DNA from: a virus
IMG/VR virus record: IMGVR_UViG_3300044900_000004
Coordinates: 1,103 to 65,102 of that record
Reading direction: 5' to 3' (one strand)
Length of the DNA: 64,000 nt
Shown here: piece by piece, positions 20,682-60,403 of the stretch
How the letters are laid out: each line of letters starts with the position of its first letter
Position numbering within the stretch: position 1 is the stretch's first letter
Program-made: the position numbers and the translations under genes
Notes under the pieces: model-generated
Seen by the model: only the letters and a program-made list of their open reading frames with translations
What the model was told of the DNA's origin: nothing
Databases searched by the model: none

Positions 20682-21677
20682 ATGGCAACTATTTTCAAAT
20701 ACAACGGTGTTCAATATCTCAGCATCAAAGACGCTTGCCAGCAATTAGGGAAAAATTATGCGGCTGTCCTAAAACGCCTTCAAGCTAACTGGACTGTGGC
20801 ACAAGCGTTTGACGACGAACCTCGCCCACCCCGACACCCCCTCTCACTCAATGGGGTTACTTACAATGGGGTCGGCGAAGCGGTTCGACTCCTAAACGCT
20901 CCTGTGAGTCGCCGCACTGCTATGCGGCGAATGGAAGCAGGAATGACCCTGGAGGAAAGTTTATTCACGCCTCTTACCCTTGCTCACAGCAATGGAGTTG
21001 TTTATTCGATCACCAATCTCGTCAATGGCAAGCAATATATCGGTATAACCACCACGTCACTGGAAGAGCGATGGCAAAGCCATCTAGACACTCCTCTCAA
21101 AAAAAGACACCTGCTCCATCAATCGATCACTGAATTTGGCAAAGAGAACTTCGCGATCGAGGTTCTCGAACGTGCTTCTAGCCTGAAAGAGCTTCGCGTC
21201 AAAGAGCAAGAGTGGATTCAGAAGTTAAACACAAGGCAGCCAAATGGCTACAACATCACCAAAGGCGGTGAAATGGGCGGATCTGCGGGCAAGCCTACTA
21301 TACTCCCTGGAGATCCAACGCTCTACCCAACTGTTCGGGCTGCGGCGAAAGCGTTGGCTCAAAGGGAAGGAATTAATGAAGCTGCTGCCGAGAGGAGAAT
21401 TTATGTAGAGCGAATTGAGGTTAAGAAACCTCATGGAATGTCAAAAAGCAAAATTTATCGGTATTGGGATAATTTGATCAATTCCACAACCAACCCTCGA
21501 TCGAGGGGCTACAACGGTTCTACACTCTGCGATCGCTGGAGGGATTTTAGGAACTTTCATGAGGATATGGGTGAGCAATACCAGGAGGGTATGATCCTTC
21601 GATTAAAGGACTCTACTAAGCCTTACTCTAAAGACAATTGCTCTTGGGTCTGGCGCTACGGAAAGAGCATTGTCTAA
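20682..21677 (+). CDS. GIY-YIG homing endonuclease with degenerate HNH-like C-terminus
   Basis: GVVYSITNLVNGKQYIGIT...RW..H...E..WI...GYN. Confidence 0.8.
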   Translation: MATIFKYNGVQYLSIKDACQQLGKNYAAVLKRLQANWTVAQAFDDEPRPPRHPLSLNGVTYNGVGEAVRLLNAPVSRRTAMRRMEAGMTLEESLFTPLTLAHSNGVVYSITNLVNGKQYIGITTTSLEERWQSHLDTPLKKRHLLHQSITEFGKENFAIEVLERASSLKELRVKEQEWIQKLNTRQPNGYNITKGGEMGGSAGKPTILPGDPTLYPTVRAAAKALAQREGINEAAAERRIYVERIEVKKPHGMSKSKIYRYWDNLINSTTNPRSRGYNGSTLCDRWRDFRNFHEDMGEQYQEGMILRLKDSTKPYSKDNCSWVWRYGKSIV

Positions 21678-30844: not shown

Positions 30845-30874
30845 GCCGAACCACACAAAGGATACGGCTTCAGG

Positions 30875-38091: not shown

Positions 38092-38119
38092 GACGCGAGG
38101 AATGAGGGATGAGTCCAGC

Positions 38120-38127
38120 ATTCCTAC
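38120..38127 (-). promoter_or_regulatory. GTRGGAAY motif
   Basis: GTAGGAAT, 28 nt before ATG 38091, after hairpin + T6. Confidence 0.6.
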
Positions 38128-38288
38128 AACAAAAAACCGCCAGGAACGCGACTGACGGCAGGAAAGGAGAGCTATTAAGAATTCCGATAAGACTTCGCAT
38201 ATTACATGCTGTTAGTGGAACGTGGTTTTTTCGGAATGGTAGCGTAAACGGATGTATTTTTCTTAGAAGTCTCAGTAGCAAACTAGTT

Positions 38289-38924
38289 ATGCGTAGTTTA
38301 GGTGTATCTTTTGTTAGTCGTTCTTTTGCAACATTTGCTCTAGTAATTTGTTTCTACAGTTTCTTCATCTCCCCCGAAACCGCAATCAAGACTCAAGCTT
38401 TTTACTGGTTTTGTGGCGCACTTGTGTCAGCGGTAATTCCATATCTAAAGGAAGTAGCAGCATATGTGCGAAGCATCAAACTTGGTGATATTGAAATTGC
38501 TTTGAATGAAGTTAAACATGAAATTCAAAGAGTTGATAACAAGGTAGAAAAGTTAGACAACAAGTTGTTAGCATCGCTGGGTCAAGTTCGTCAAAGTGAA
38601 GCAGCATTGACAAGAGAAGCTCGTGAAAATCGGCAGAGAATTTATGATGAATCTGCTCAAGCTCTTGCATTGCTGCCTCCTGAAAGCAAGATAAACTTAC
38701 AGAAGCGTCTTACACTAAACCATCTTAATGATGCCGGTATTGACGTGCAAACCCTCAAGGGTGTGTTCAAAGATCTTGGTTACTATCAAGGGTCAATCGA
38801 TCAGTTTTTTAATCCTGAGTTGGTGAAATCAATTGAGAGGTTTCAAGCTGAAAAAATACCAGGACAACCTGATGGCATAGTTGGTCCAATTACGCTTTCC
38901 AAGATCGCGGAGCTTCACTCTTAA
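38289..38924 (+). CDS. 2-TM + coiled-coil + peptidoglycan-binding domain protein (cassette-like)
   Basis: LGYYQGSIDQFF...AIERFQ....PDGIVGPIT pattern; AT-rich; ATG embedded in GTTATGC. Confidence 0.75.
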   Translation: MRSLGVSFVSRSFATFALVICFYSFFISPETAIKTQAFYWFCGALVSAVIPYLKEVAAYVRSIKLGDIEIALNEVKHEIQRVDNKVEKLDNKLLASLGQVRQSEAALTREARENRQRIYDESAQALALLPPESKINLQKRLTLNHLNDAGIDVQTLKGVFKDLGYYQGSIDQFFNPELVKSIERFQAEKIPGQPDGIVGPITLSKIAELHS

Positions 38925-40955: not shown

Positions 40956-41603
40956 ATGGCTAGAAGAATTATAGTTGAGCCAGGAGACAGGTTTGAAGCC
41001 TTGGTGGTTGTAGAAGAACTTCCGGTGCAAAGGTATCCAAACGGAGCCAAGTATCGTTCTTTTAGGCTTGCCTGCGATTGTGGCTCTGAAGTCAGAGCAA
41101 TCTTAGGGCATTTGAGATCTGGACACACTTCGTCTTGTGGATGCAGCAGAAGAGCCTACTATCAGTCTGTTATGCCTGAGTATCGCGTTTGGCAGCAGAT
41201 GAAGCAAAGATGCGGGAATCCAAGGTGCCGAGCATACTCTAGGTATGGCGGCAGAGGGATTAAGGTTTGCGATGCCTGGAAGAATTCATTTGAAGCTTTT
41301 ATCTCGGATATGGGTTTGCGTCCATCTGACGGGCACACCATAGACAGAATTGACGTGAACGGAGATTACGAGCCGAGCAATTGCCGATGGGCTACTCGGC
41401 AAGAGCAGATGCACAACATAAGGACTAATCGAGAGGTTGAGTTTAGGGGTGTTAAAAAATGCATTGGCGCATGGGCAAGGCACTTCAGCAAACACCCTTC
41501 AACTCTGTACAAGACTAAGACAAGCGAGGGTGTTTGTAAGATCTTAGAGCGATGGGCGGCCCTAAGAGATTGTGAGAATCAGGAGGCTTTTTTCAAAAAA
41601 TGA
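40956..41603 (+). CDS. HNH homing endonuclease
   Basis: CDCG...SCGC, RYGGRGIKVC, TIDRIDVNGDYEPSNCRWAT. Confidence 0.85.
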   Translation: MARRIIVEPGDRFEALVVVEELPVQRYPNGAKYRSFRLACDCGSEVRAILGHLRSGHTSSCGCSRRAYYQSVMPEYRVWQQMKQRCGNPRCRAYSRYGGRGIKVCDAWKNSFEAFISDMGLRPSDGHTIDRIDVNGDYEPSNCRWATRQEQMHNIRTNREVEFRGVKKCIGAWARHFSKHPSTLYKTKTSEGVCKILERWAALRDCENQEAFFKK

Positions 41604-42094
41604 GCCCAAAATGATCCGTCGCTCATACAGGTGCGGCGGATTAGTTCGTTCGAGTAATGCAACCCTTTGCCCCTGCAATCGTTAGCATCATCATTCCTGT
41701 CGTATCCCCACTCATTCCACTCGCCATAAGGGTCATGTACCCAGAAGCCATTGTCATCAGCCCCAGTCACGGCGATGATGTGGCCACTTGAAGTGAAAAA
41801 TCCGGCAATGATCGCTGGATTAGTTTTGACCCATTCCTTCACCTCGGCGATCGTTGCATTCGATTTGAACTCATCATTCACGCCGTAGGCTTCGGCCACT
41901 CTGGCCAGATCGTGGGGACTGTGGCGGTCTAGTCCATGCTCTTCGCAATAATCATCTAATTCGTCAGGGAACCGCCGCTCAGTTCGGGGGGAAACACCCA
42001 AATACAGCAAGCACATTGCCAGGCTTGAAACGTTGCAGCTTCCGAATGGATTGTCTGCATTCGATAGCTGATCAAAATAAGGAACGTTGAGCAT
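41579..42094 (-). CDS. C39-like peptidase, candidate endolysin
   Basis: LNVPYFDQ...SCNVSSLAM...GHII...VHDPYG (Cys-His-Asp). Confidence 0.8.
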   Translation of the reverse strand: MLNVPYFDQLSNADNPFGSCNVSSLAMCLLYLGVSPRTERRFPDELDDYCEEHGLDRHSPHDLARVAEAYGVNDEFKSNATIAEVKEWVKTNPAIIAGFFTSSGHIIAVTGADDNGFWVHDPYGEWNEWGYDRNDDANDCRGKGLHYSNELIRRTCMSDGSFWAHFLKKAS

Positions 42095-42123
42095 CAGGAG
42101 TCCAAAAATGACTATGCCTGAAT

Positions 42124-42131
42124 ATTCCTAC
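42124..42131 (-). promoter_or_regulatory. GTRGGAAY motif
   Basis: GTAGGAAT, 29 nt before ATG 42094. Confidence 0.6.
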
Positions 42132-42349
42132 GTTTGGCTTTGAGAAAAGGCTTGAGAGAGGGATGAGCCAACTGGATGGCTCGATCGATGTCCACTTGAG
42201 TGATTTTCGGCTTAGAAGCGGCAACTGAAATCGGTGAACCGATTGGCTTGAACAGCGGTTCGGGGGGAGTCATGATCTAGAAGTCAACAGACGGCAGATT
42301 ACGATCGTCCTGAAGTTGTCGGAAAAACCGACAACTTCAAATTGAGTCA

Positions 42350-42577
42350 TTACTTACGCTTGAGCAGGGAGAACGATCGACAGAGCAGCACCGGAATCCA
42401 CGCAAAGCCGAGAAATGCAAAAGTGAATACAAAAAACAGACTGACCAAGATCACCGCATCGTCACCACGATCTTCTGCCATGTCGATCGCTATCTCGCTG
42501 ATATCAACGTTTTGAACATAGTCATTGCAGGTAAATATCCATCCACCCAGATAGCAAACCCAAAGAGCTGTAAGCAT
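42350..42577 (-). CDS. Small 2-TM protein (holin candidate)
   Basis: CYLGGWIF...WIPVLLCR; paralog of 42618..42800. Confidence 0.55.
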   Translation of the reverse strand: MLTALWVCYLGGWIFTCNDYVQNVDISEIAIDMAEDRGDDAVILVSLFFVFTFAFLGFAWIPVLLCRSFSLLKRK

Positions 42578-42617
42578 TTGCAGTTAATTTTTAGCTTTCA
42601 GCGTAAGGGTTCCCGCG

Positions 42618-42800
42618 TCATGATCTAGAGGTCAACAGACGGCAGAGTACGATCGGAACCCAGTAAAAAAACAGAATGGCAAACATCATTCCGATAAGTA
42701 GGCTGGAACAAATGCCGTCGTCTGGCTCACTGACGGTCTCAGCAAAGTCCACGCAAATGAATATCCACCCAATCAGGTAGCAAGCAACGATCGTCGTCAT
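42618..42800 (-). CDS. Small 2-TM protein (holin candidate)
   Basis: CYLIGWIF...WVPIVLCR. Confidence 0.55.
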   Translation of the reverse strand: MTTIVACYLIGWIFICVDFAETVSEPDDGICSSLLIGMMFAILFFYWVPIVLCRLLTSRS

Positions 42801-42931
42801 CTTCGGGTTCGGTTAATTCGTGAGTTGTGGCCCTCTAGCCATACCGAAAAGCCCAGCACGAAGACGCAGGCGGCAACGTTGGCAAAAAAGGCAAGCAGCA
42901 TAAAAGCGAAGGGATTAGGGCAGTTCATCAT
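42797..42931 (-). CDS. 44-aa single-TM protein
   Basis: MMNCPNPFAFMLLAFFANVAACVFVLGFSVWL...; stop overlaps ATG 42800. Confidence 0.4.
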   Translation of the reverse strand: MMNCPNPFAFMLLAFFANVAACVFVLGFSVWLEGHNSRINRTRR

Positions 42932-44342
42932 TTGGTTCTGTGTTCTGAGTTCCTACGAGATCTACATTCTGCTCAATTTCCTCAAGCTTCGTGTCAGCAG
43001 GGAGCCAGCGACGCGCTAAGAGCATTTGTAAGCCAAGAGCCTGGGGAATTTGAACGCCCATTGCATCCAAAATGATTTGGATTTCTTGCGGGGTTGCTGG
43101 GATTTGCAGAATCGATTCGTTTACGTCCAAGCTGCCAGTGGCTGGTTCACGGGTGAACGCTGCCCAGAACCTGAAGATCTGCTGTGAGCAAGATTCTTTG
43201 CGGGTAGCCATACCCTTGAGAGTTGCCTGCGTTTGAGCAGTGTCCAGAACCACCTCGGTTGCCGTTTTCGCTGTCTCGCTGCCAGAGAGAAACGCTAGCG
43301 TCACGCGATCCATCGATCGCTCTAGCTTTTCAATATCTGCCTGCGTCAATGCCATGCCGCTGCCCGAAGGTTCGGCAAAAGAGAAATCGCCTGTTTCTGG
43401 GACATCGACAACCGAATTTGGACCAATCACCAGACGCGGCATGATCGGCGGCTGCCCTGGGACAGTTGGGGCGATCGCTTTTGCACCTTTCCGCACAGGC
43501 ACAGGCATATTGATCTTGTACTGGATTTCGTTGAAGCTCGATCGCTTCTGCAGATGCTCAATGTTCAGCCTCGCTAAATTCATGAATGGCGGCTGACCCT
43601 GGAACAATTTAGATTCTGAAATGCTGTACCAAACGATCGGCACTTCACTCAGGCTCGTCTTCCCCTCATCCACCAGCCGCTTAACGTAGCCCTGCTTCGT
43701 GTGAATCAGTTCGTAAACCTCAAAGGAGCCAGGGCGCAACACGCGATAGAGAGTCTGCTGTTTGGTGCCAAATTCGCCATCGTCAACCTCCTCGATCGTG
43801 CGAATCACCACGCGATTGATAAACTGTTTGCCGCCTCGGTGAGTCGTGCTCCAGTTGAGAATGTCGCGCCGATCGATGAGCACCAAATAGGGCCGTCTTC
43901 CCGATTCGAGTAAGTCCCGATTGGTGAGGATTTCAGGATCTTCAGGTGGATACTCCACCAAAATTCCGCACCCACCGTCACGCATCACCAGCTCATCAGC
44001 TTCGGTGAAGAACGTCACTAGATCATTACCCTGTCCGTCGATGTCTTTTTCAGAAAGTACGATCGACGCTGGGACTTCATCCGTGAGCGTAAACTCACTC
44101 AGCAAACCCGCATGACCTTTGAGCGCAGGGGTGAATCGGTTGTCGAAGTGGGCGCGATCGAGCCTGTTTTTATAAGCTTTTTCTGGCTCTGCCTGCTCTT
44201 TGGGGAGATATTGTTTTTTGCAGTTTTTGAGGTCGTTCCAGACATTCCACACCAAATCAAGTTCATCCTGCACCTCTAGAAGGTTTGGGTGCAGGAAGCT
44301 GGGGAGGGTGTTGTCTGTGGTGGGAATTGCAGCGGTTCTCAT
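42915..44342 (-). CDS. Portal protein (DUF4055-like)
   Basis: 475 aa; YLPKEQAE...YKNRL; LARLNIEH; AKTATE. Confidence 0.85.
   Translation of the reverse strand: MRTAAIPTTDNTLPSFLHPNLLEVQDELDLVWNVWNDLKNCKKQYLPKEQAEPEKAYKNRLDRAHFDNRFTPALKGHAGLLSEFTLTDEVPASIVLSEKDIDGQGNDLVTFFTEADELVMRDGGCGILVEYPPEDPEILTNRDLLESGRRPYLVLIDRRDILNWSTTHRGGKQFINRVVIRTIEEVDDGEFGTKQQTLYRVLRPGSFEVYELIHTKQGYVKRLVDEGKTSLSEVPIVWYSISESKLFQGQPPFMNLARLNIEHLQKRSSFNEIQYKINMPVPVRKGAKAIAPTVPGQPPIMPRLVIGPNSVVDVPETGDFSFAEPSGSGMALTQADIEKLERSMDRVTLAFLSGSETAKTATEVVLDTAQTQATLKGMATRKESCSQQIFRFWAAFTREPATGSLDVNESILQIPATPQEIQIILDAMGVQIPQALGLQMLLARRWLPADTKLEEIEQNVDLVGTQNTEPNDELP
42949..42956 (-). promoter_or_regulatory. GTRGGAAY motif inside the portal 3' end
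   Basis: GTAGGAAC, 17-20 nt before the small membrane-gene cluster. Confidence 0.45.
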
Positions 44343-49027: not shown

Positions 49028-49960
49028 ATGACCATTATCACCAATTTAATCAAGTTCGAGCAAAACGGAATTGAATTCTACACGGTCGAAGCAACTGGCG
49101 AATCTGGAATCAGCCAGTCAGGTCTAGCAAAACTCTGCGGAGTTACACGCCCATCGATCGTGAATTTTGCAAAGACTCTGACCCCTGTAACTTGCGAAGG
49201 TGAAACCGTTTCAGAACCCAGTGATACCAAGAGTTTTGAGGATTTTACCCTTGTAACTAACAGTGGAAAAGCGGTTGTAAACGGACGGGAATCAGGGAGT
49301 CTCAGAATCTATCGTTCTAACTTCTGCATTGCCGCAATCAAGTACTACGCAGAGAAGGGAAAGAAGGAAGCGCTTCATAGTCTACTGAAATTTGCAGAAC
49401 TGGGATTTGAAACCTGGGTGCAGCAAATTACAGGCTGGAAGCCACCCCAAACAGACCAGCCCATTCTTGAGCCAGAACCACAGCCCCAAATCGAGCCCCC
49501 CACCCTCGAAGTCACCGCCGAACAGATTCCCCCCGAACTACCACCCGCACCTGAAGAACCCACCCTTCACCCCGCACTGAAATTCATCCAGGACGCGATC
49601 GACATGGGTGAAAAACTTGGCGGTTTTGATTCTGGTGAGCAAGCGATCGTTCGGGCGAAACTTGCCAAAGCGATTCAGGTCGCACAACTGAGCGAATTAA
49701 CTTTACCAACTCCCGTTGAAGCTCCCCAGCAATACACGATCGCTGAACGCGCCTTTGTCCTCGGACACCGCATCAACCAACTTCAAACCGTCGCAGCCGG
49801 AAAATTCGCAGCCGAACTCTACCGCAAAAAGCACGACAAAAATCCACCGCAGCGACTCACCAATTACAACGGCGGCGTGAGCTACGTCAACGTTTACAGT
49901 GGGCGCGACCTATCGATCGCTGACCTCGCCATTCAAACCGTTGCTGAACGGGGGTACTAA
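49028..49960 (+). CDS. Antirepressor-like DNA-binding protein with N-terminal HTH (copy B)
   Basis: ISQSGLAKLCGVTRPSIVNF. Confidence 0.6.
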   Translation: MTIITNLIKFEQNGIEFYTVEATGESGISQSGLAKLCGVTRPSIVNFAKTLTPVTCEGETVSEPSDTKSFEDFTLVTNSGKAVVNGRESGSLRIYRSNFCIAAIKYYAEKGKKEALHSLLKFAELGFETWVQQITGWKPPQTDQPILEPEPQPQIEPPTLEVTAEQIPPELPPAPEEPTLHPALKFIQDAIDMGEKLGGFDSGEQAIVRAKLAKAIQVAQLSELTLPTPVEAPQQYTIAERAFVLGHRINQLQTVAAGKFAAELYRKKHDKNPPQRLTNYNGGVSYVNVYSGRDLSIADLAIQTVAERGY

Positions 49961-50452: not shown

Positions 50453-50556
50453 TTCTTATAAACCTTATAAGTATTGGCAGTCGATCGCCGTCTCAAACAC
50501 GAGGCGGCTTTTTATTGTAGAGAAAGTTACTCAAAGGTTCCTCAAAGGTTTCTCAC

Positions 50557-50877
50557 ATGCGAACAACATTTGAACAACCTTTGAGCTTTGACCCAAACGC
50601 CGTTTTAGGAGCCGATGGTTACGAACGCTGCGCTGTCTTCAATGAGCTATCTCGCGAATACGGACAAGCAATCTGCTACCGCACCTTTTACGGTTGGTGT
50701 CGCACTCTGAAGATCCCCTCTGGTCGCGTCCTCTACCCCGCCAGAGAAGTGTTTCTTCTCCTAACCCTGGTTTGGGCGCGGTTTGGTCAAGGCTACCGAG
50801 GTTTATCCCGTCCCGTTATTGAATCTCTCCAAGAAAACTATGCCAGTAGCAGAATTAATCGAACGGTTGGAAGCTGA
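50557..50877 (+). CDS. Putative HTH protein
   Basis: ICYRTFYGWCRTLKIP. Confidence 0.45.
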   Translation: MRTTFEQPLSFDPNAVLGADGYERCAVFNELSREYGQAICYRTFYGWCRTLKIPSGRVLYPAREVFLLLTLVWARFGQGYRGLSRPVIESLQENYASSRINRTVGS

Positions 50878-51319
50878 AGGGCTGACTCCAAATCAGTCGC
50901 ATAAGGCTTTAGAAGAGTTAGGGCTACCTCAAGATGGCGAGGTTCCTTCCGAGGCGTATGAGCAGGTCATCTCTCATGTGTCTTCTCCCCCCAAAAAACA
51001 AAAGGGTGGATCAGTCGCCAAGCGTCAGCAGCAATCTAATCAGGGCAAGGGCGACCTTACAAAAGCAGGCGAAAAGCTCACAAACGCGATCGCCAAGACT
51101 CAAGCAAAACAAGCGATCGAGGCTTGCGACGCGGCTGCTAAAATCACCGCCGTTGCAGTTTTAAAGCGAAATTCGAGCAATATGAACGCCCTGGCAGACC
51201 AGATTCTAGGCTCTACAGGAATGAGTTCTGAAATCGTAGATCGCACCTCCGATGAGTTCGACATCGACGCTTTTTTGGGGGAAATTCCCAGCCCTTTAGC
51301 GGGGTTGAATCTGGGCTAA
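50840..51319 (+). CDS. Hypothetical coiled-coil protein
   Basis: Start MPVAELIERL; acidic C-terminus. Confidence 0.6.
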   Translation: MPVAELIERLEAEGLTPNQSHKALEELGLPQDGEVPSEAYEQVISHVSSPPKKQKGGSVAKRQQQSNQGKGDLTKAGEKLTNAIAKTQAKQAIEACDAAAKITAVAVLKRNSSNMNALADQILGSTGMSSEIVDRTSDEFDIDAFLGEIPSPLAGLNLG

Positions 51320-51393
51320 TTCAGCAGGCAATTATCTATAAACTGCTGCTGGCTCAGGTTGCTCAAGAGTCTTACCACAAAGGAGAAGAAAGA

Positions 51394-51537
51394 ATGGTCG
51401 ATGCAATTTTGAACGGATTCGGATACGGGGTGATGGTCGGCGTTGCTGGACTGCTGATTGGAGGAATGGCGATCGCGACCACTCCAATTTTGATCGCTGG
51501 CATCGGCGGGGCGTTGGTGGGAGGAATGCGTCGATGA
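51394..51537 (+). CDS. 47-aa glycine-zipper membrane protein (below ORF-track cutoff)
   Basis: AAGGAG upstream; MVDAILNGFGYGVMVGVAGLLIGGMAIATTPILIAGIGGALVGGMRR; stop overlaps ATG 51534. Confidence 0.7.
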   Translation: MVDAILNGFGYGVMVGVAGLLIGGMAIATTPILIAGIGGALVGGMRR

Positions 51538-51950
51538 TCAAGCAATTTGTCAGAGGGCTTTTGGTGATCGGCATTGGGTTGGCCGCTGGCTACGCAAACG
51601 GTCAAGTTGCCGAGCTTGCAGCCGAACAGTCCGCGCAAAAAACCTTTTACGCACGTCAATTCGACCCTAATCGCGATGTGCAATTTAGCATTAACGGCTT
51701 GCAGCAGTACACAACTGAGACTGCTCGATCGGCGGCTGACCTAGCGCAAGGCTATCAACTGATGGTTGCCCTCGCTGCATTCGCTCTGACAGCGTTTGTG
51801 ATGATGGCTCCAACTCCAGACCGCAAGCCCCAGCCCATCACCGAAACTCAGCTTCTATTTCAGCGTTGGATCAGCGCCGCCAAAAAGAACAACTCTTTAG
51901 AAATGGCCGCGATCGAGACTCAGGTGCAAGAGACTCATGAGCAAAACTGA
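51534..51950 (+). CDS. 2-TM membrane protein
   Basis: Hydrophobic segments near N-terminus and centre. Confidence 0.65.
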   Translation: MIKQFVRGLLVIGIGLAAGYANGQVAELAAEQSAQKTFYARQFDPNRDVQFSINGLQQYTTETARSAADLAQGYQLMVALAAFALTAFVMMAPTPDRKPQPITETQLLFQRWISAAKKNNSLEMAAIETQVQETHEQN

Positions 51951-52464
51951 CGAAGGCGAAAAACTAGATCTCACTCAGTGGGCGATTGCTCAGTTCAAAA
52001 GCCTTCCGATCGGCAAATGGGTTCCTTTTGTTTTTGGTGTCGCGCTACTGGCGATTGTGTGGGCGCGTGGCTCTGAAAAACCTCCGATGGTTGAGGAATC
52101 GAAGTCTAACCCAGTTCGGGCAGCAGCAACGCTTGATCCGGCTGCTAACGACGGAGACAGCAAGCTGCTGCCTGATGCCTACAACGTGGCTCAACAGCAG
52201 TTAATCTCGCTTCGCGCCCAACAGATTCGCGCCGAGTTCGATCGGGCAACCACCGACAAGAAAAATCGCTGCTTCAAAAAATCTCCCATGATTTGTGCAG
52301 AGCGGCGATTGAGCGAACTCAGCCGCAAGTTAACCGAGACGATCGGCGACGATGGCAGCCTTAAAGTTACTCCCCAACGCGCTTTGGAACTCACCCTAGA
52401 GGCTCAAGCTGTCCTTGCGGCGATGAGCGGGCAGGAGTCAAAGATGCCGATACCGAGCGCTTAA
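51937..52464 (+). CDS. Single-TM membrane protein
   Basis: WVPFVFGVALLAIVWA followed by soluble domain. Confidence 0.65.
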   Translation: MSKTDEGEKLDLTQWAIAQFKSLPIGKWVPFVFGVALLAIVWARGSEKPPMVEESKSNPVRAAATLDPAANDGDSKLLPDAYNVAQQQLISLRAQQIRAEFDRATTDKKNRCFKKSPMICAERRLSELSRKLTETIGDDGSLKVTPQRALELTLEAQAVLAAMSGQESKMPIPSA

Positions 52465-52617
52465 TTCAAATCTACCTACCAGCGACAGATGGGCAATCTA
52501 CCAATCTGTCAGGCGTGGCCGCCTCAATTCAGGGCACCGACTTATATCTAGAGAAGCGAAGGGTCGATCGCCTCTCATCAGTCGGAAAATCCGACGAAAT
52601 CCCTCAGCTAAAAAAAC

Positions 52618-53943
52618 GTGATGCCTCAAAGACTGCCCTGGATAATTAGCTGCGCTGTATCGACACTGCTGACGCTCTCTATTTCTGAGCAGAGCAACAG
52701 TTACCAAGCGTCGATCGACACCGCAATTTATCAACAAACCGGAGATCTCAAAGTCGCTTGGATGAAACCAGAAGGGGCACTCGCCAACCTGTTAACTTTC
52801 AGTTCGGGGGGAATGGCTTGCTTTGCGCTTTATCAGATTCTCAATCAGTCAACTACTGTGCAGACTGAGACAAAAAAGGAGAGCAAAAAGAGTCAGAAAG
52901 CAGAAGCTGAATCGGAGGAGCAACCTCTAAAAGAGCCTCTAGAGTCTGAGCAAGAGCATGAAGATGGTGACGACGCATCTGAATCGCCTGAGACTGTTGT
53001 AGCTCTGGTGTCAGTGCCAGAAAAACCAAGTCTCTTCGACCGCGTTTGGAATCATCGCAAGCGGCACCTCTTAATCCCTGCCGAAACCGGAGCCGGAAAA
53101 ACCACGCTGCTACTTGGCTTGCTCAAATACTTTTGGGAACAGAGCGGCGAAACTGTTGAAATTTACGCCTCAACCGTCAAGCCCTCCCCTTGTCTAGGGC
53201 TGGAGTTTGAAACCGCTCCTGATGGATTGCCCAAAGTGATCAATCTCAATGTGACCGACCCGGCCACGGTTGAGACGCTCATTCATCGTTTGCGCTGGCT
53301 GCAAAAGCGATTGCAAAAGCGCCAAAATCAACGGGCTGAAGCCGAAGCTGCAAACAAGCCCTACACTCCTACTCGAATTATCATTGTTGCCGACGAGTGG
53401 AACAGCACTCTTGGTCTAGCCGCTCGGTTTGACAAGATTCTGGCGCGGGAGTTTTCGATCGCGAAAGCCGAAAAAGCTGAGGTGCTTCCGCAGCCTCCCT
53501 ACGCAGTTGACGAACTCAAATCATTGATGGAATCAATCTTGCTGATGGGGCGTGAAGACGAGTGCGCTGAATGGGTGTTTGGGCAAGATCACCAAGTCCA
53601 AAACGCAGGGTTTAACACTGGCTATCGTAAGTCTTTCGGCGTGTTGGTGCCCTTTCGCAAAGGTGCAACGCAGTCGCTTGAAGATGCGCTCATCGGTCGA
53701 TCTCCCGTACTGCCATTTCAGATTGGGAAGCAGATTTTAGAGCAGGCAAATAAAGAGATCGAGGCAAATCCTGATGGTGCATTTGTCTATTCAAATTTGA
53801 ATGGGCACGAAATTCTAGAAGTTCCTTATATGCCAAACATCAAGCGAGAGAAACTCAATGGCAAACAACAACCAGCAACAGCAGGGCAATCAGAATCAGC
53901 AACAGAACCCACAGCAGAACTATCAGAATCAGACCCGTGGTAA
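52618..53943 (+). CDS. Membrane-anchored FtsK/HerA-like P-loop ATPase
   Basis: N-terminal hydrophobic segments; HLLIPAETGAGKTT (Walker A); IIIVADEW (Walker B); GQDHQ. Confidence 0.7.
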   Translation: MMPQRLPWIISCAVSTLLTLSISEQSNSYQASIDTAIYQQTGDLKVAWMKPEGALANLLTFSSGGMACFALYQILNQSTTVQTETKKESKKSQKAEAESEEQPLKEPLESEQEHEDGDDASESPETVVALVSVPEKPSLFDRVWNHRKRHLLIPAETGAGKTTLLLGLLKYFWEQSGETVEIYASTVKPSPCLGLEFETAPDGLPKVINLNVTDPATVETLIHRLRWLQKRLQKRQNQRAEAEAANKPYTPTRIIIVADEWNSTLGLAARFDKILAREFSIAKAEKAEVLPQPPYAVDELKSLMESILLMGREDECAEWVFGQDHQVQNAGFNTGYRKSFGVLVPFRKGATQSLEDALIGRSPVLPFQIGKQILEQANKEIEANPDGAFVYSNLNGHEILEVPYMPNIKREKLNGKQQPATAGQSESATEPTAELSESDPW

Positions 53944-54298
53944 TAACAGGAGCAACAAACAAATGGGCGTAAAAGAATTTGTTTCCGAACACACCAGCCT
54001 TGACGTGACTCGTCCTGGTAACTCGCTCAAGAATTGGTTTATCGGCATCCCGATCGCGATCTCTCTAGTGTTTGGAGTTGTCGTCGAAGGCAATCCAGTT
54101 TCTAAGTTCGTGTCGTCTCTCGGCGTGGGAGCAAGACGCGGCGTAGGCAGCGCTATCACTGAAACTCAGCCCCAGATGCAAGAAGGAGTCGAAAGTCTGT
54201 ACGGTCGCCCAACTCAACCAGGCGATTTGAGTAAGCGCAAACAGCAATCTCAAGGACAGCAAACTCAGTGCAACAACGGCTGGTGCTGGAAAAACTGA
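53858..54298 (+). CDS. Single-TM protein with Q/N-rich ends
   Basis: WFIGIPIAISLVFGVVV; start uncertain. Confidence 0.55.
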   Translation: MANNNQQQQGNQNQQQNPQQNYQNQTRGNNRSNKQMGVKEFVSEHTSLDVTRPGNSLKNWFIGIPIAISLVFGVVVEGNPVSKFVSSLGVGARRGVGSAITETQPQMQEGVESLYGRPTQPGDLSKRKQQSQGQQTQCNNGWCWKN

Positions 54299-54299
54299 T

Positions 54300-54794
54300 A
54301 TGTCGAAATACATCATCCCAGGGCTGCGGCTCCAACACATTCTGATTCTTGGCACCTGCGCTTATTTAATGCAAGCGATCGCCACCGCAGACGGAGCGTT
54401 CAGGCTCAATCACTCTTTAGCAGTGCAGGTAAAAGAACGGGGATGGGCAGGCGCAATGCAGTCTCTGGGATGGATGGACAAATCGGCAGACGCGATCGAC
54501 CGATGGAGCATTAAACAATTCGGCAAAGACCCCTGGCAGGCTCAAGGTGAGTTTCTCGCTCGGCAGGTTGGGGATTGTGTCACCACTCCCAGCTATGGCA
54601 AGGGCTACCTCAGCAAAGCCCAAATCAGCGTGTATCACCGCGCTCTCAAAAAAGACTTAAAAGTACTCGGATCGCCCCTCTGCAAGACCGTTTCAGGCAA
54701 TTTACGTTACCTGACAGACGAACCCCAAACGCTCTTTGAGGTCGATTCGACCAACCCTAAAAATTATGGTGCAGTCACGCAGCCCGACAATTGA
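54300..54794 (+). CDS. Membrane/secreted hypothetical protein
   Basis: N-terminal hydrophobic segment. Confidence 0.55.
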   Translation: MSKYIIPGLRLQHILILGTCAYLMQAIATADGAFRLNHSLAVQVKERGWAGAMQSLGWMDKSADAIDRWSIKQFGKDPWQAQGEFLARQVGDCVTTPSYGKGYLSKAQISVYHRALKKDLKVLGSPLCKTVSGNLRYLTDEPQTLFEVDSTNPKNYGAVTQPDN

Positions 54795-56313
54795 TAATGT
54801 TATCTCGCTCGCTAAATTCCTTAATAAATCAGCAACCCCAGACCGCTCCTCTGCGCTCAAAGATGCCAAACTGCGCCTAGAAACCGCCCAAAAGAATGCC
54901 CGAACTGCGAGAGACCCAAACCGCGCTAATGACCTCGCTGAAAGCGCCAAAGACTCTCTAGATATCGCAGAAGAGAAGCGGATTAAAGCGGTCAGCACCT
55001 ACAACCTGGTTGCTGACAAACTCAATCAAATCAAGGCGGCGCAGAAGACCCCAGACGAGTTGCAGCTTCTGGCTGACTCGGTTGAAACTGCCAAAGATCG
55101 GCTCGATCGGGCATCTCGCAAAGTTGACAAGCTGCAAGAAGCTGTCAATCTAGGGTCAGCAAAACTGCGTCAAGCGAGGCAATTAGAGAAATCTGAGACG
55201 GAACTTGAATCTCTCGAATCGTTGCTGAATGTCGATCGAGAGAAACTCAGTCGCGCATCTATTCAGTTTCGCGCTAGACAGGATGAGTTTAAGCAGGCAG
55301 AGCAGGCACTTTCTCAAGCCAGAAAGCTCACCAAAACGCCCGAAGAACTCAAACTTCTAGAAGACCGACTCAATGAGGCTCAAGGGCAAGTAGACCGAGC
55401 AACCAAAAAGGTCGCCGATGCCCAGCAAAATTATCAGCAGGCTCTAACCACTGCTCAAACCACCACAGCCGAAGCTCAGAAATTGGAAGCAGAGTTGGCG
55501 ATTGCCCTTGCTGATTACGAAAAAATTACTGAGGCAACCGAAGCTGAGGAACGATTTGCAGCGATCGAGGCGCACCTTCAGACCTTTGAGAAGGGGCTGC
55601 AAACGACCAGAGAAGTGACTGACGTAGTTGACCCGTTTCTCAATGCTGAATTTTGGTGGAATTCTGCCTGCCTGGGAGCGACGGCGCTAGTTGCTGTGAT
55701 GTACTTCACTCCCTTGGGGGCAGTGCTACAAAACACAGTTAAGGCAGTGAAATGGACGGCTGGTGCAGTTGGCAACGCTAAACAGTATGTGGATTCAACG
55801 TTTGCTCCAAATCTCAAGGACGTGCCAAAAGAGGGAGAAACGATCGCGGGTTGGGTTGTCACTTCTGGGTTTGGGCCGCGCACTTCTCCCACCGCAGGCG
55901 CATCCAAAGATCACGGCGGCATCGACCTTGCTGACCCACGCGGACCTAAATTTACAACAGGACGCGAACTCTACGGCATCGGCACTCCTGGAACCAAATT
56001 GCAGTTGACCTGCTGGCAAGATACAGGCGGCGGCGGGTTGGTCGCAACCTTAAAGCCTGAAAGCCTGCCCTACACGATCGAGTATCTCCACTTATCAAAA
56101 TGCCAGCTCAAAAATGGCGAAACCAAAACGGTTAGCGCAGGCAAGGTGATCGCTTTGGTGGGCCGCTCCGGAGTAGGTACGGCGGCCCACCTGCATCTAC
56201 AGGTCAAAGATGCCAACGGCAAAAAGATTCCGCCACCCCGGTCGATCGCTTGGTGGGCACTTACCGGAGAAATGCCCCAACCCGTAATTGCTCAGAAGAG
56301 GATAACCAAATGA
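54766..56313 (+). CDS. Coiled-coil + TM + M23 metallopeptidase
   Basis: VTSGFGPR...HGGID...YLHL...GRSG.GT..HLH. Confidence 0.85.
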   Translation: MVQSRSPTIDNVISLAKFLNKSATPDRSSALKDAKLRLETAQKNARTARDPNRANDLAESAKDSLDIAEEKRIKAVSTYNLVADKLNQIKAAQKTPDELQLLADSVETAKDRLDRASRKVDKLQEAVNLGSAKLRQARQLEKSETELESLESLLNVDREKLSRASIQFRARQDEFKQAEQALSQARKLTKTPEELKLLEDRLNEAQGQVDRATKKVADAQQNYQQALTTAQTTTAEAQKLEAELAIALADYEKITEATEAEERFAAIEAHLQTFEKGLQTTREVTDVVDPFLNAEFWWNSACLGATALVAVMYFTPLGAVLQNTVKAVKWTAGAVGNAKQYVDSTFAPNLKDVPKEGETIAGWVVTSGFGPRTSPTAGASKDHGGIDLADPRGPKFTTGRELYGIGTPGTKLQLTCWQDTGGGGLVATLKPESLPYTIEYLHLSKCQLKNGETKTVSAGKVIALVGRSGVGTAAHLHLQVKDANGKKIPPPRSIAWWALTGEMPQPVIAQKRITK

Positions 56314-56477
56314 CGCTCAACCCCTTTTATTGGTGGCTTCAGGCAGTGGCGATCGAGTTACGTCATTTCGGCGAAGTCTTAACTACCGCCGACTTGATGT
56401 CTGCTGAGTTTTACTTCTACCAGTCATACACGCCAAATCAGTATGCAAACGCGCTACTTAACTGGAGACGATACTGA
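56310..56477 (+). CDS. Hypothetical protein
   Basis: Coupled 55-aa ORF MTLNPFYWW... Confidence 0.45.
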   Translation: MTLNPFYWWLQAVAIELRHFGEVLTTADLMSAEFYFYQSYTPNQYANALLNWRRY

Positions 56478-56992
56478 TGACTCAATCAGACCCACGTCGC
56501 CACAAACAGAAGTGGAAGCGCACTGCCAAGCTCACCCGATCGCTGACTCGAGATCGCTGTTGCAACTGTGGAGCCGCCGCCAAAGAAGTGCATCACAGTT
56601 ACTACGGCATTCGAGTTTTGTTTCTCACCTTGCCTTTGTCCGGCTTTGAGATTCCCGGCTGGCAAATCTTTCCGTTGTGCGACAAGTGCCATTCCAACTC
56701 TAAGCACTGCGCTCACCACATCAGCAATTATCAAGCTTCAAAGCTCTCAGACTGGTTCAACTGCAACACCTCCAGCTACTTGTGGGGACTGCGGTTTAAG
56801 TTTCTGCTGACTGTTGCGATCGTGCATCCACTCACCACCTTATTGATTTTGATTGGCTTATGGCTATCCGTTCCGACTATCTTTGCTGGTTCATCCTGGG
56901 GGCGATTTTTGTCACCAGCCTCCCCTCGATCGCCCAAAGCACCAAATCTACCAGCCAGACTGCTGCATCGCCTGACACCGCCAAACTTGTAG
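56477..56992 (+). CDS. HNH-like nuclease with C-terminal TM segment
   Basis: CCNCG...EVHH...PLCDKCH. Confidence 0.6.
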   Translation: MTQSDPRRHKQKWKRTAKLTRSLTRDRCCNCGAAAKEVHHSYYGIRVLFLTLPLSGFEIPGWQIFPLCDKCHSNSKHCAHHISNYQASKLSDWFNCNTSSYLWGLRFKFLLTVAIVHPLTTLLILIGLWLSVPTIFAGSSWGRFLSPASPRSPKAPNLPARLLHRLTPPNL

Positions 56993-57405
56993 GCGAAATG
57001 GAAGGCTTCCGATCCTGCCCTTATAAAGACCCTGTGGGAGTGGCGACGATCGGATACGGCAACACCTACTACCAGGATGGGCGCAAGGTAACACTGAACG
57101 ATGCTTGTTTAGACAAAGACAAAGCAAAGCAGTTGATGCAAGCCACGCTAGACAAAACAGCGAGAGAAGTAGAGGCGATGGTGAACGTACCGCTAACCGC
57201 TAATCAAAAAACGGCTCTCACCAGTTTTGCCTTCAACATAGGAACAGGGGCGCTGAGAGACTCTGACTTGCTAGCAAAACTCAACGCTGGAGATAAAGAA
57301 GGCGCGGCACAAGAGTTTGATCGCTGGGTGCATGGCGAGAACAAGCAAGTGCTGCCGGGGTTGGTCGATCGCCGCGCCAAAGAGAAAGACCTCTTCAAAA
57401 AATAA
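56860..57405 (+). CDS. GH24 phage lysozyme with N-terminal signal-like segment
   Basis: EMEGFR..PYKDPVGVATIGYG...FAFNIG...FDRW...LPGLVDRRAKE. Confidence 0.9.
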   Translation: MAIRSDYLCWFILGAIFVTSLPSIAQSTKSTSQTAASPDTAKLVGEMEGFRSCPYKDPVGVATIGYGNTYYQDGRKVTLNDACLDKDKAKQLMQATLDKTAREVEAMVNVPLTANQKTALTSFAFNIGTGALRDSDLLAKLNAGDKEGAAQEFDRWVHGENKQVLPGLVDRRAKEKDLFKK

Positions 57406-57645: not shown

Positions 57646-57953
57646 GCAAGGCCTTCCTTGGTGAGAGCTAAGGATTCCTTTTTGGCTAATATCTATCCGT
57701 AAATAGCCAGAACTGCTTTAACGATCGACCACGGACTGATCGTGATCTTGCTTCGCTTTGTATAGCGCGACTAAAAACAAGAATCGCATAGCATTTTAAG
57801 CAATTCCCCTAAAAAACGCGATCGCGTCGCGATCGCGTTTCAAAAAGGTATGTTAGTCTTGCATTAGGTGAAAAAGAATTAGCAAAGCAAAAGAGCCAGT
57901 CTCCTGGAAAAGATTACAGCCCTTTTGCCGCTCTACTCGTTTTTGCTAGAAAT

Positions 57954-58989: not shown

Positions 58990-59087
58990 TGGCGGCACTG
59001 GTGCCTATGTTCTGTCCAAAGAAGCGTCGCTGGTGCTAGTTGTGCTTCCTAAGCTCAGTGCTGGGGGTTCAATTCCCCTGCCGTTCA
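58990..59087 (+). tRNA. tRNA-Arg(CCU)-like element with enlarged D-region
   Basis: Anticodon loop TTCCTAA, T-arm GGGGG-TTCAATT-CCCCT, acceptor TGGCGGC/GCCGTTC; ~24 extra nt in the D-loop. Confidence 0.45.
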
Positions 59088-59104
59088 TAATCCTATCTAA
59101 GCCC

Positions 59105-59776
59105 ATGGAAGCAGTAGAAATGATGAATCGCTCTAGTTACTTGAATTGTAATAATTGGGACTACTCTGACCACCCTAAGCGTCATAGTGCCCTTTCAGAA
59201 AGATGCTTCGAGGTTTACAAGGAAATAGAAGAAAATAGGCTAGGTATTTTAGATCTTTTAGCAGATTCGCGCCCTACTCATAAGCATCTTTTTGAATTTG
59301 CCGCCCCTTCTGATTGCGAATATATGGCTGGGCATTACCGTGGTGAAGATTTTCCTTGTTTAGCTAATTGCTGGGTTGGAATTGAATCGGATTCGAGTGT
59401 TGGATACGCGCCATCAATTGTTCTAGAAACTATGAAAGTATTTGGTGATATTTCGACTAATTCAATTCATGCCTTAGACCCAATTATTCAAGATTCTAAC
59501 TTTTCAATAGAACGCAAGATTATTAGAGCAGTTACTTCAGCCTGTGACATTTTTGAGTATTTTCTCCGAATACATCCTTACGCCAACGGGAATGGGCATC
59601 TTAGCAGGATGCTGCTTTGGGCGACTCTTAAGCGCTATAACTTTGAGCCTAGAGGTTTGACAATAGATACTAGACCAATATCTCCGTATGCAACCCTTAT
59701 CAAGTCATACAGAGAAGATGACAAAAAGCCTTTAATAGCTAAGATTTTGAATTTTATTAATGCGAACGGTACATGA
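59105..59776 (+). CDS. Fic-domain protein
   Basis: HPYANGNGHLSR (cf. HPFxDGNGRxxR); AGHYR. Confidence 0.85.
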   Translation: MEAVEMMNRSSYLNCNNWDYSDHPKRHSALSERCFEVYKEIEENRLGILDLLADSRPTHKHLFEFAAPSDCEYMAGHYRGEDFPCLANCWVGIESDSSVGYAPSIVLETMKVFGDISTNSIHALDPIIQDSNFSIERKIIRAVTSACDIFEYFLRIHPYANGNGHLSRMLLWATLKRYNFEPRGLTIDTRPISPYATLIKSYREDDKKPLIAKILNFINANGT

Positions 59777-59782
59777 ATAAAC

Positions 59783-60403
59783 TTAATCGTTGAAGCTAGA
59801 TATTTCGCTTGAAAAATTGCGGAGCCATTGCTCTGAACCAGAAACATCTTGTTTCCTTTTACTTATTGCAAAACTGGCTTGACGTGCCAATTCTAATAGT
59901 TCCTCATCAGCTTCGATAGAAGAAGTTTCATCATCTATGCTTGCTTCTCTTGCGCTCCAACCAAACCCAAACTCATTGAGACGACTGGAAAAATATTGTT
60001 TTATTGATTGCTGAGGAATTGATTGGCTTAACTTATTATAATTCTCAATCCAAGGAGACTCAAGATGGGTCATATTTCTCAAGCTCATAGCAGAATATTT
60101 ACCAAACATCTCTAAAATTCTATTCAAGAAAGCACTAATGTTTTGGTCCCAAGTTTGATAGTTAGAATGTGCTTGAAAATTGACTGGATTGGCACCAAAA
60201 AGCTTGAGTTCATGGTACACAGAAGGAACAACAGGTCCATGATCCCAAGCTTCAAGTTCTTCTAAAAATAAAGGGGACTCATACAAAGCCAAATGAAACC
60301 CTTGCGCGTAATAGAGCAGTTTTTGAATTTTTAAGTTGCTTAAATCTGTATAGCTTTGACCATTTTCTACAAAGTATCGAGCAATTTCTAAAGCATTTTT
60401 CAT
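59783..60403 (-). CDS. SocA/Panacea (DUF4065) antitoxin-like protein
   Basis: LSNLKIQKLLYYAQG...AWDHGPVV...LRNMTH.E.PW. Confidence 0.88.
   Translation of the reverse strand: MKNALEIARYFVENGQSYTDLSNLKIQKLLYYAQGFHLALYESPLFLEELEAWDHGPVVPSVYHELKLFGANPVNFQAHSNYQTWDQNISAFLNRILEMFGKYSAMSLRNMTHLESPWIENYNKLSQSIPQQSIKQYFSSRLNEFGFGWSAREASIDDETSSIEADEELLELARQASFAISKRKQDVSGSEQWLRNFSSEISSFND

Follow-up and report, generated by a model that had tools for sequence, protein, structure and literature searches.

In the Streptomyces plasmid pSVH1, TraB and the small peptidoglycan-binding membrane proteins termed Spd form a relaxase-independent complex for the transfer and spreading of double-stranded DNA (dsDNA) (PMC4447253). 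FtsK-type motors move DNA in cell division, sporulation and the conjugation of Gram-positive bacteria and actinomycetes, or they move proteins in type VII secretion. Here we describe a provirus operon in which such a motor appears to be coupled to catalytic wall hydrolases. It occupies positions 50557-57405 of a 64,000-nt stretch of DNA (positions 1,103-65,102 of IMG/VR record IMGVR_UViG_3300044900_000004), hereafter the window, whose numbering is used throughout. Like TraB/Spd, the operon has a single membrane-anchored FtsK-like ATPase as its only motor, without a relaxase or VirB4, and it shares with that system translationally coupled genes for small membrane proteins, peptidoglycan-interacting components and a multicellular filamentous host. 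The two differ in that their sequence relationship is found only at the level of the FtsK superfamily, that the operon ATPase lacks the C-terminal winged helix with which TraB reads the 8-mer repeats of clt, that catalytic M23 and GH24 enzymes stand where TraB works with peptidoglycan-binding Spd proteins, and that the setting is a tailed prophage in a diderm cyanobacterium rather than an actinomycete plasmid. Literature searches returned no description of this motor-hydrolase module. We consider it a variant of the FtsK-type translocase systems of mobile elements, the fusions of motor and hydrolase being its most original feature, and the operon as a whole looks like a small envelope-spanning translocation machine for DNA or another polymer.

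In the list of open reading frames (ORFs), 12 abutting or overlapping plus-strand ORFs fill the interval, with products of 106, 178, 47 (Gly-rich), 138, 175, 441, 146, 164, 525, 75, 171 and 181 aa from 5' to 3'. The first-pass annotation of this DNA had proposed a coupled plus-strand operon here, encoding a glycine-zipper mini-protein, several transmembrane (TM) proteins, a membrane-anchored FtsK/HerA-like ATPase, a coiled-coil-TM-M23 peptidase, a signal-bearing GH24 lysozyme and a TM-anchored HNH-like nuclease. The head-to-tail and overlapping ORFs agree with the proposed coupling, several products do carry hydrophobic segments (TM segments were called by Kyte-Doolittle hydropathy), and the remaining assignments stand as well, except that the nuclease is borne out only in part. 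The argument turns mainly on the following products.

52618-53943, plus strand: FtsK/TcpA-like ATPase, 441 aa; the likely start is ATG 52621.
54736-56313, plus strand: 525-aa protein with a coiled coil (about 1-300), a TM helix (311-331) and an M23 metallopeptidase domain (about 370-500), Zn/catalytic motifs intact.
56477-56992, plus strand: gene k, 171 aa, with a CxxC..HH..CxxCH pattern followed by a hydrophobic C-terminal segment (107-140); its 3' end shares 133 nt, read in a different frame, with the lysozyme gene.
56860-57405, plus strand: GH24 (T4-type) lysozyme, 181 aa, with an N-terminal signal or signal-anchor (7-26).

Across 22 homologues of the ATPase, no variation is seen at the Walker A and B residues G158, G160, K161, T162 and E260, and almost none at D259. 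An AlphaFold2 (AF2) model based on the alignment of these homologues comprises two N-terminal hydrophobic helices (6-26 and 54-76), a disordered acidic linker and one RecA-type motor, of which residues 135-415 are modelled confidently, mostly with predicted local distance difference test (pLDDT) values above 90. The C-terminus (53869-53943) is a short, acidic, disordered tail. It ends in a D-(P/x)-W motif that most family members share and that resembles a docking site for a partner. A Foldseek search with the motor gave 38 matches at E<=1e-3, headed by TcpA (E 3.7e-6) with EccC and FtsK next. The exhaustive VIA-align comparison likewise gave TcpA a Z of 16.5 (root-mean-square deviation 3.3, 222 aa), FtsK 15.4 and EccC 15.3-15.4, with DndH-C at 14.8, HerA at 14.7, VirB4 at 14.3 and TrwB at 11.5; the motor superposes on TcpA, FtsK, EccC and HerA over 217-228 aligned residues.

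Family profiles were less telling for the window protein itself, where Pfam detects the P-loop only and below threshold (AAA_30 1e-3, DUF87 0.033). It also falls below the PF01580 FtsK_SpoIIIE threshold and matches the FtsK/SpoIIIE-like PHROG 1358 at 2.1e-5, and a PDB sequence search with the ATPase profile gave nothing meaningful. A profile search of 1.84 billion representatives collected 141 relatives, and among 100 wider relatives scanned, FtsK_SpoIIIE (PF01580) was found in 19 (best 4e-9) and DUF87 in 10. From the model and the fold matches, we place the protein in the FtsK/HerA superfamily, as a divergent form with one motor domain and a membrane anchor that stands nearest to the FtsK/TcpA/EccC group.

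Comparison with the members of this group is instructive. TcpA of the Clostridium perfringens plasmid pCW3 (PDB 6o1w/6o1x) is the best motor match and shares the N-terminal TM helices. The sequence identity with it is only 14-15%. TcpA works alongside a dedicated wall hydrolase, TcpG. The tcp system further depends on a relaxase, a VirB4-like ATPase and proteins resembling VirB6 and VirB8; no relaxase, VirB4 or VirB6-/VirB8-like protein was found here. In functional terms, TcpA and TraB/Spd, as FtsK-like systems of conjugation and spreading, are the nearest analogues of the operon. FtsK and SpoIIIE, as well as TraB, have the same succession of TM anchor, linker and RecA-type motor, and SpoIIIE acts at the septum together with wall-remodelling enzymes. 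Unlike FtsK and SpoIIIE, the window ATPase has no gamma (KOPS-reading) domain, carries two TM helices instead of four, does not reach the Pfam threshold of their family and is encoded by a mobile-element gene within a hydrolase operon. EccC and EssC are again membrane-anchored FtsK-like ATPases, and their fold scores are equal to those of FtsK within error. They have three tandem ATPase domains with FHA/DUF additions and secrete WXG100-type proteins, in contrast to the single-domain chain of the window, beside which the operon encodes no member of such a substrate family.

This last resemblance brings in a rival reading, which we consider unlikely though a serious contender, namely that the operon encodes an ATP-coupled wall-remodelling or protein-export machine. 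In the export version the substrate would be a protein, as for the type VII secretion system (T7SS) ATPases EssC and EccC. The level Z scores of EccC and FtsK speak for it, and so does the failure to find a DNA-recognition domain. The single ATPase domain per chain, the missing FHA domain and the lack of any WXG100-like or other T7SS family among the operon products (Pfam at E<=0.1; NCBIfam) speak against it.

The surroundings of the ATPase in sequence space raise another reading. FtsK_SpoIIIE-type clusters dominated by tailed-phage sequences are among its nearest neighbours in the ESM Atlas, and the STIV B204 packaging ATPase is matched with Z 11.6. FtsK-like genes without an assigned role also recur in phages of filamentous Streptomyces, where a role in replication has been suggested (PMC11536984, PMC13587820). 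These observations would suit a helper in the replication, segregation or packaging of the phage genome. Nevertheless, we hold such a role to be scarcely probable, given that the provirus has its own large terminase and portal, that the membrane anchor and the linkage or fusion to hydrolases would be left unexplained, and that the block of genes around the operon holds no capsid protein of a membrane-containing virus. The related idea of a hidden membrane-containing virus, similar to tectiviruses or corticoviruses, was rejected since the block contains no capsid-sized soluble protein and the ATPase has an N-terminal membrane anchor.

Turning to the hydrolases, the M23 domain scores above the Pfam cut-off (PF01551, 1.8e-7, 31.7 bits vs 28.7) and retains both motifs, HxxxD as HGGID at 393 and HxH as HLH at 485. 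Among named enzymes, it comes closest to the DD-endopeptidases ShyA and MepM. The head of the protein, about 300 residues, is coiled-coil-like in composition, with 62% of its residues being E, K, R, Q, A or L. The lysozyme matches PF00959 at 1.7e-40 and keeps the Glu-8-Asp-5-Thr triad, starting at E48. Both enzymes look active, as judged from these motifs. The pair recalls the PrgK/CwlT-type hydrolases of Gram-positive conjugative elements, which are TM-anchored, unite glycosidase and peptidase (LytM/M23 or NlpC/P60) activity and open the wall for the transfer channel. PrgK and CwlT belong to VirB4-based type IV secretion systems (T4SSs). In contrast to them, the two activities here reside on separate proteins, each of which has an extra N-terminal domain or is fused in relatives.

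An accessory or alternative lysis cassette also has to be considered at this point, with the lysozyme as a signal- or SAR-type (signal-arrest-release) GH24 endolysin acting together with M23, release by pinholin-like small TM proteins, and an unrelated ATPase. The lysozyme indeed matches endolysin PHROG 7 (1.1e-47) and resembles the gene-transfer-agent endolysin BgtA, the M23 protein matches endolysin PHROGs down to 5.6e-14, and the operon has several small TM proteins. We nevertheless think such a cassette distinctly improbable. No other member of the module is as well conserved as the ATPase, which in relatives is fused to peptidases, and the sizeable domains N-terminal to the TM helix on the hydrolases, or fused to them in relatives, are not an endolysin feature. 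The provirus also has a separate late pair of holin-like genes with a peptidase, at 41579-42800 on the minus strand, where two paralogous two-TM proteins (60 and 75 aa) precede the following gene.

41579-42094, minus strand: Peptidase_C39_2-type cysteine peptidase, 171 aa, with a GTRGGAAY motif directly upstream (42124-42131).

The two holin-like genes and the C39_2 gene make a credible late holin/endolysin set. GTRGGAAY has 18 occurrences where about 5 would be expected, nearly all of them on the minus strand ahead of structural genes. The stretch from 44.4 to 58.5 kb is free of it, and the operon thus lacks the late motif that marks the structural and C39_2 genes. Both points had been made at first sight, the separateness of the operon from the C39/holin-like genes and its want of the late motif, and both are upheld. 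The operon does not look like an ordinary late lysis cassette. The late set itself follows directly on the portal gene, an unusual place for it. A PG_binding_1 protein is encoded at 38109-38924.

The third product in question, that of gene k, is less clear. Its CxxC..HH..CxxCH pattern, of His-Me/HNH-like type, is invariant in 5/5 sequences, and a hydrophobic segment follows it, in keeping with the TM-anchored nuclease first proposed. The family matches, on the other hand, lie below threshold: PHROG 119 HNH at 0.0084, and Pfam DUF968, which we take to belong to the His-Me finger clan, in 5/5 members (best 1.1e-3). By our reading, Gln stands where the HNH Asn is expected. The AF2 model reaches a pLDDT of 52 from a 5-row alignment, too low for judging the fold, and a PDB search with a profile of the Cys-rich domain found nothing relevant. 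The HNH-like designation is plausible but unproven.

A membrane-anchored HNH-like product beside a translocase would also suit superinfection exclusion or another membrane-level defence, in which the two intercept foreign DNA at the inner membrane and the wall enzymes modify the entry site. The position in the early operon and the fold matches to HerA-type defence ATPases (DndH Z 14.8, HerA-DUF 14.7, TdpAB 12.2, Nezha HerA 11.5) point the same way. This seems to us quite improbable, as the PADLOC matches were confined to a P-loop stretch (mad8) and coiled-coil noise, most loci with the module lack the nuclease-like protein, and active wall hydrolases would have no obvious role.

The most informative evidence comes from the relatives. 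ATPase homologues, 34-73% identical, are found only in cyanobacterial sequences, namely Myxacorys, Oculatella, Leptolyngbya PCC 7375, Roholtiella, Thermosynechococcaceae metagenome-assembled genomes (MAGs) and Sphaerospermopsis; the named hosts are presumably filamentous for the most part, among them Myxacorys, Oculatella, Leptolyngbya, Roholtiella and Sphaerospermopsis. The family is rare, a pattern scan finding it in 7 of about 185,000 species genomes. A tblastn search with the ATPase against phage and plasmid collections gave no match, and a scan of IMG/VR revealed one further locus only, in Oculatella, which that database classes as a provirus. Eleven loci were compared gene by gene, and they share a common order: small membrane proteins, a TM-helical protein overlapping the ATPase start, the ATPase, two small exported or TM proteins, M23 and a glycosidase. 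The ATPase gene is thus always accompanied by genes for small membrane proteins and for TM-tethered peptidoglycan hydrolases with intact catalytic motifs. In the window, the genes adjoining the ATPase in this order are as follows.

51937-52649, plus strand: gene e, N-terminal TM (22-43) and a helical domain with two conserved Cys; frameshifted here.
53858-54298, plus strand: gene g, single TM (57-81 of the 146-aa ORF) and a Q/N-rich head; the likely start, ATG 53963, gives 111 aa, as in relatives.
54300-54794, plus strand: gene h, 164 aa, signal-like N-terminus; kept after g in eight loci.

The run of gene e, ATPase, gene g, gene h, M23 and glycosidase recurs in independent cyanobacterial loci in which ATPase identity is as low as 34-41%, so that the synteny search recommended at the outset did recover the module in the same gene order. 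Gene g adjoins the ATPase gene in all type A and type B loci. The glycosidase has been replaced non-orthologously, being GH24 here and an SLT_3-like enzyme in Oculatella, which points to selection for the pair of activities and not for one particular enzyme.

In several relatives, motor and hydrolase are joined in one polypeptide. Four genes after the main ATPase gene, Oculatella sp. LEGE 06141 encodes a 534-aa protein (locus L001, 12508-14112) with a second, paralogous ATPase domain, a TM helix and M23. This second domain is Walker-intact, 27% identical to the main ATPase, and replaces the coiled coil. Among the 100 wider relatives scanned, the order ATPase-TM-peptidase occurs with M23 in four and with NlpC/P60 in place of M23 in two (P0044 and P0052). 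The lysozyme shows a comparable variation. Locus L004 (7943-8908) encodes a single protein of 321 aa in which the Cys-rich domain is followed by a TM helix and the lysozyme; in Myxacorys, as in the window, the Cys-rich and lysozyme genes overlap in different frames. The part that lies N-terminal to the TM helix on the hydrolases is thus variable, a coiled coil here, a Walker-intact ATPase domain in Oculatella and a Zn-finger/HNH-like domain on the L004 lysozyme. From the fusions and the shared gene order together, the motor and the wall hydrolases seem to act as a single machine.

With regard to the overlap of gene k and the lysozyme gene, a programmed -1 frameshift joining them was considered and rejected, no canonical slippery heptamer being seen there. 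The split is shared with locus L011, and L004 has the fusion, so that fission or fusion of the genes explains the arrangement more simply. In this region (56828-56992), hydrophobic segments are encoded in both frames of the overlap.

The same fusions sustain the wall-remodelling version of the export/remodelling rival. Here an FtsK-like ring would drive or gate the tethered M23 peptidase and lysozyme across the membrane in the manner of FtsEX-EnvC, possibly to thin or split the septal wall, to fragment filaments or to prepare the envelope before lysis. The ATPase-TM-M23 and ATPase-TM-NlpC/P60 proteins join ATP hydrolysis to a hydrolase directly, and the pairing of coiled coil and M23 recalls EnvC. 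The analogy is weakened by the fact that the FtsEX ATPase is of the ABC type and not a ring translocase, and ring motors of the FtsK clade normally thread a polymer.

Neighbouring genes of the relatives include Cro/cI-type helix-turn-helix (HTH) genes, DNA methylases, ParB_N, an integrase, a single-stranded DNA-binding protein (SSB), Phage_tail_L and DUF932, a gene content typical of temperate phages or phage-like elements, and the module appears to be restricted to such mobile elements of cyanobacteria. The loci of the Leptolyngbya PCC 7375 type are phage-like only putatively, since a search for the terminase family PF17289 in five host genomes gave matches only far from the module locus and the large genes downstream in L006 had no PHROG or Pfam match.

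The provirus itself is recorded in IMG/VR as 73.7 kb, inserted at the 5' end of host comM/yifB. The remaining comM encodes 468 aa, compared with 508 aa in full-length homologues, and is 97% identical to comM of Phormidesmis sp., which suggests a Phormidesmis-like host. Phormidesmis belongs to the Leptolyngbyaceae and grows as thin filaments. The structural genes of the phage (major head protein, scaffold, portal) occupy the minus strand at about 2.4-47.8 kb, and the large terminase lies outside the window on its right side, at about 65708-67153 in window coordinates (loci L018/L023). Between terminase and portal is a plus-strand block at 48.4-61.4 kb, of which the operon forms the core. The arrangement of portal (42915-44342) and terminase on the same strand, about 21 kb apart with the whole plus-strand early block between them, is unusual for a tailed phage. 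Within the structural region, the minus strand also has an ORF of 3060 aa (21674-30856), and the record carries insertion sequence (IS)-type transposase genes (DDE, OrfB_IS605/TnpB-like).

A phage hybrid with an integrative and conjugative element (ICE) was one of the initial proposals and finds no support, as neither conjugation families nor boundaries of a nested element were found. No relaxase, VirB4/AAA_10 or VirD4/TraG-type coupling protein (T4CP) appears in the Pfam and NCBIfam matches of the operon proteins or in the Pfam matches (E<=1e-4) of 62 further provirus proteins; the original remark that neither relaxase nor clear VirB4 is visible therefore holds. The gene tables of the relatives' loci likewise list no relaxase, VirB4 or VirD4-type protein. 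The tyrosine integrase family PF00589 is absent from the 73.7-kb record although the element is inserted in comM, and no serine recombinase turned up in the Pfam scan of the 62 provirus proteins, where it was not searched by name. A nested integrative element was rejected on three counts, no tRNA having been found, no flanking direct repeats around 46.5-62 kb and no tyrosine integrase.

Taken together, our tentative preference, held as a possibility and not as a firm conclusion, is that the operon encodes a relaxase-independent DNA translocator similar to TraB/Spd. In this picture, six ATPase subunits would assemble into a ring on the inner membrane. The domains that precede the TM helices of the hydrolases, and that are presumably cytoplasmic, would dock these enzymes onto the ring. 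So tethered, the hydrolases could cut a local hole in the thick cyanobacterial wall, and the motor could pump a polymer through it. The most likely substrate would be the element's own dsDNA, transferred without a relaxase as in Streptomyces TraB/Spd, and the transfer would be outward, plausibly to the adjoining cell of the filament. In the close subfamily that has it, the membrane-anchored HNH-like protein may be a DNA-processing partner. DNA might in this way be spread through septa from cell to cell, as the first-pass annotation had suggested as a possibility. The fuller proposal, that a phage DNA pump and wall drill moves the phage genome through the septum into neighbouring trichome cells without virions, seems rather unlikely.

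Several points weigh against this translocator. The Z scores of FtsK/TcpA and EccC differ by less than one unit and cannot separate DNA pumps from the export ATPase of T7SS. Where a C-terminal DNA-recognition domain might be expected, the ATPase has only an acidic tail of about 25 aa. No clt-like repeat array was found, and genes a and b at the head of the operon have no demonstrable DNA-binding fold by Pfam or PDB sequence searches (by profile for gene b). A secreted muramidase with an M23 peptidase would also fit lysis or wall remodelling, and the HNH-like assignment is sub-threshold for a protein confined to the close subfamily. The carriers include the Thermosynechococcaceae MAGs, which may not be filamentous; moreover, a profile search of 401 sampled cyanobacterial genomes found the family in only two, both already-known carriers, too few to lend statistical support to a link with filamentous hosts. 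Finally, gene e is frameshifted in this copy, and the machine may therefore be inactive here.

The frameshift in gene e is of one base, near 52425-52440, and divides the gene into a 175-aa piece (51937-52464) and a 44-aa C-terminal piece (52515-52649), the latter in another frame and still overlapping the ATPase start. In relatives, including the one with 73% identity, the gene is intact and encodes 233-242 aa, its end overlapping the ATPase start. The difference could reflect decay in this prophage copy, recoding or a mistake in the assembly. For gene h, neither a family nor a fold match was obtained, and the ESM Atlas had no usable match, with an Atlas model of pLDDT 0.45. The remaining genes of the operon are small.

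50557-50877, plus strand: gene a, 106 aa, soluble, without family match; homologues (45-60% identity) head the operon in L011 and L016.
50783-51319, plus strand: gene b, ORF of 178 aa, the likely start at ATG 50840 giving 159 aa; helical, with an acidic C-terminus and no TM segment.
51394-51537, plus strand: gene c, 47 aa, Gly-rich and glycine-zipper-like, with two TM segments; its stop overlaps the next start, and a homologue is present in L011.
51534-51950, plus strand: gene d, 138 aa, signal-like N-terminus and a TM segment at 73-95.
56250-56477, plus strand: 75-aa ORF, a putative gene between the M23 and Cys-rich genes; not conserved in relatives.

Weak relatives of gene b are present in the Leptolyngbya PCC 7375-type loci as well. 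A complex prediction for its product with the ATPase (135-441) scored 0.00, a result that counts neither way.

Two features at the left border bear on the expression of the operon.

50487-50508, plus strand: strong intrinsic-terminator-like hairpin of 8 pairs (6 GC) followed by a T run, directly upstream of the operon.
50530-50585, plus strand: three exact copies of the 10-mer CTCAAAGGTT, two direct and one inverted, bracketing the start codon of gene a.

The hairpin appears to separate the operon from the preceding early genes. The window has no other exact copies of CTCAAAGGTT, and related words are similarly arranged upstream of the gene a homologue in L016 (about 1160-1230) and L011 (about 2900-2960). 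The repeats may be an operator or an RNA hairpin that sequesters the gene a start codon. Since the operon lies in the early arm, with a terminator before it, we infer that it is expressed at an early or middle stage, not late, and is gated by the terminator and the repeated 10-mer.

On the left, the early region encodes at 49028-49960 a 310-aa protein that matches the PADLOC 'HTH' model (1.2e-32) and BstA (2.1e-8), its N-terminus being antirepressor- or BstA-like; a PDB sequence search with the 311-aa winged-helix-turn-helix protein returned nothing meaningful. In the gap that follows the operon, a perfect 13+13 palindrome at 57814-57840 is made of two HIP1-type GCGATCGC cores. An iteron-type origin or clt beside the operon was sought and rejected, as 57.35-59.2 kb holds no repeat array and only this palindrome. 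Farther right, in DNA of low GC content (0.42), convergent genes at 59033-60403 encode a Fic/DOC-like protein (weak Pfam match) and an antitoxin-like protein with a SocA/Panacea domain (1.8e-19); the pair probably forms a moron or a toxin-antitoxin cassette.

If DNA is indeed moved by this machine, the operon would be, for tailed phages of cyanobacteria, the first system of a conjugation-like or spreading kind, and it would bear on how viruses spread inside multicellular bacteria. Should virion-free transfer through septa prove true, the module would represent a cyanobacterial counterpart of TraB/Spd plasmid spreading and a new viral route. If it is instead an ATP-gated device for cutting the wall, the ATPase-TM-peptidase fusions would represent a new form of cytoplasmic control over peptidoglycan hydrolases.

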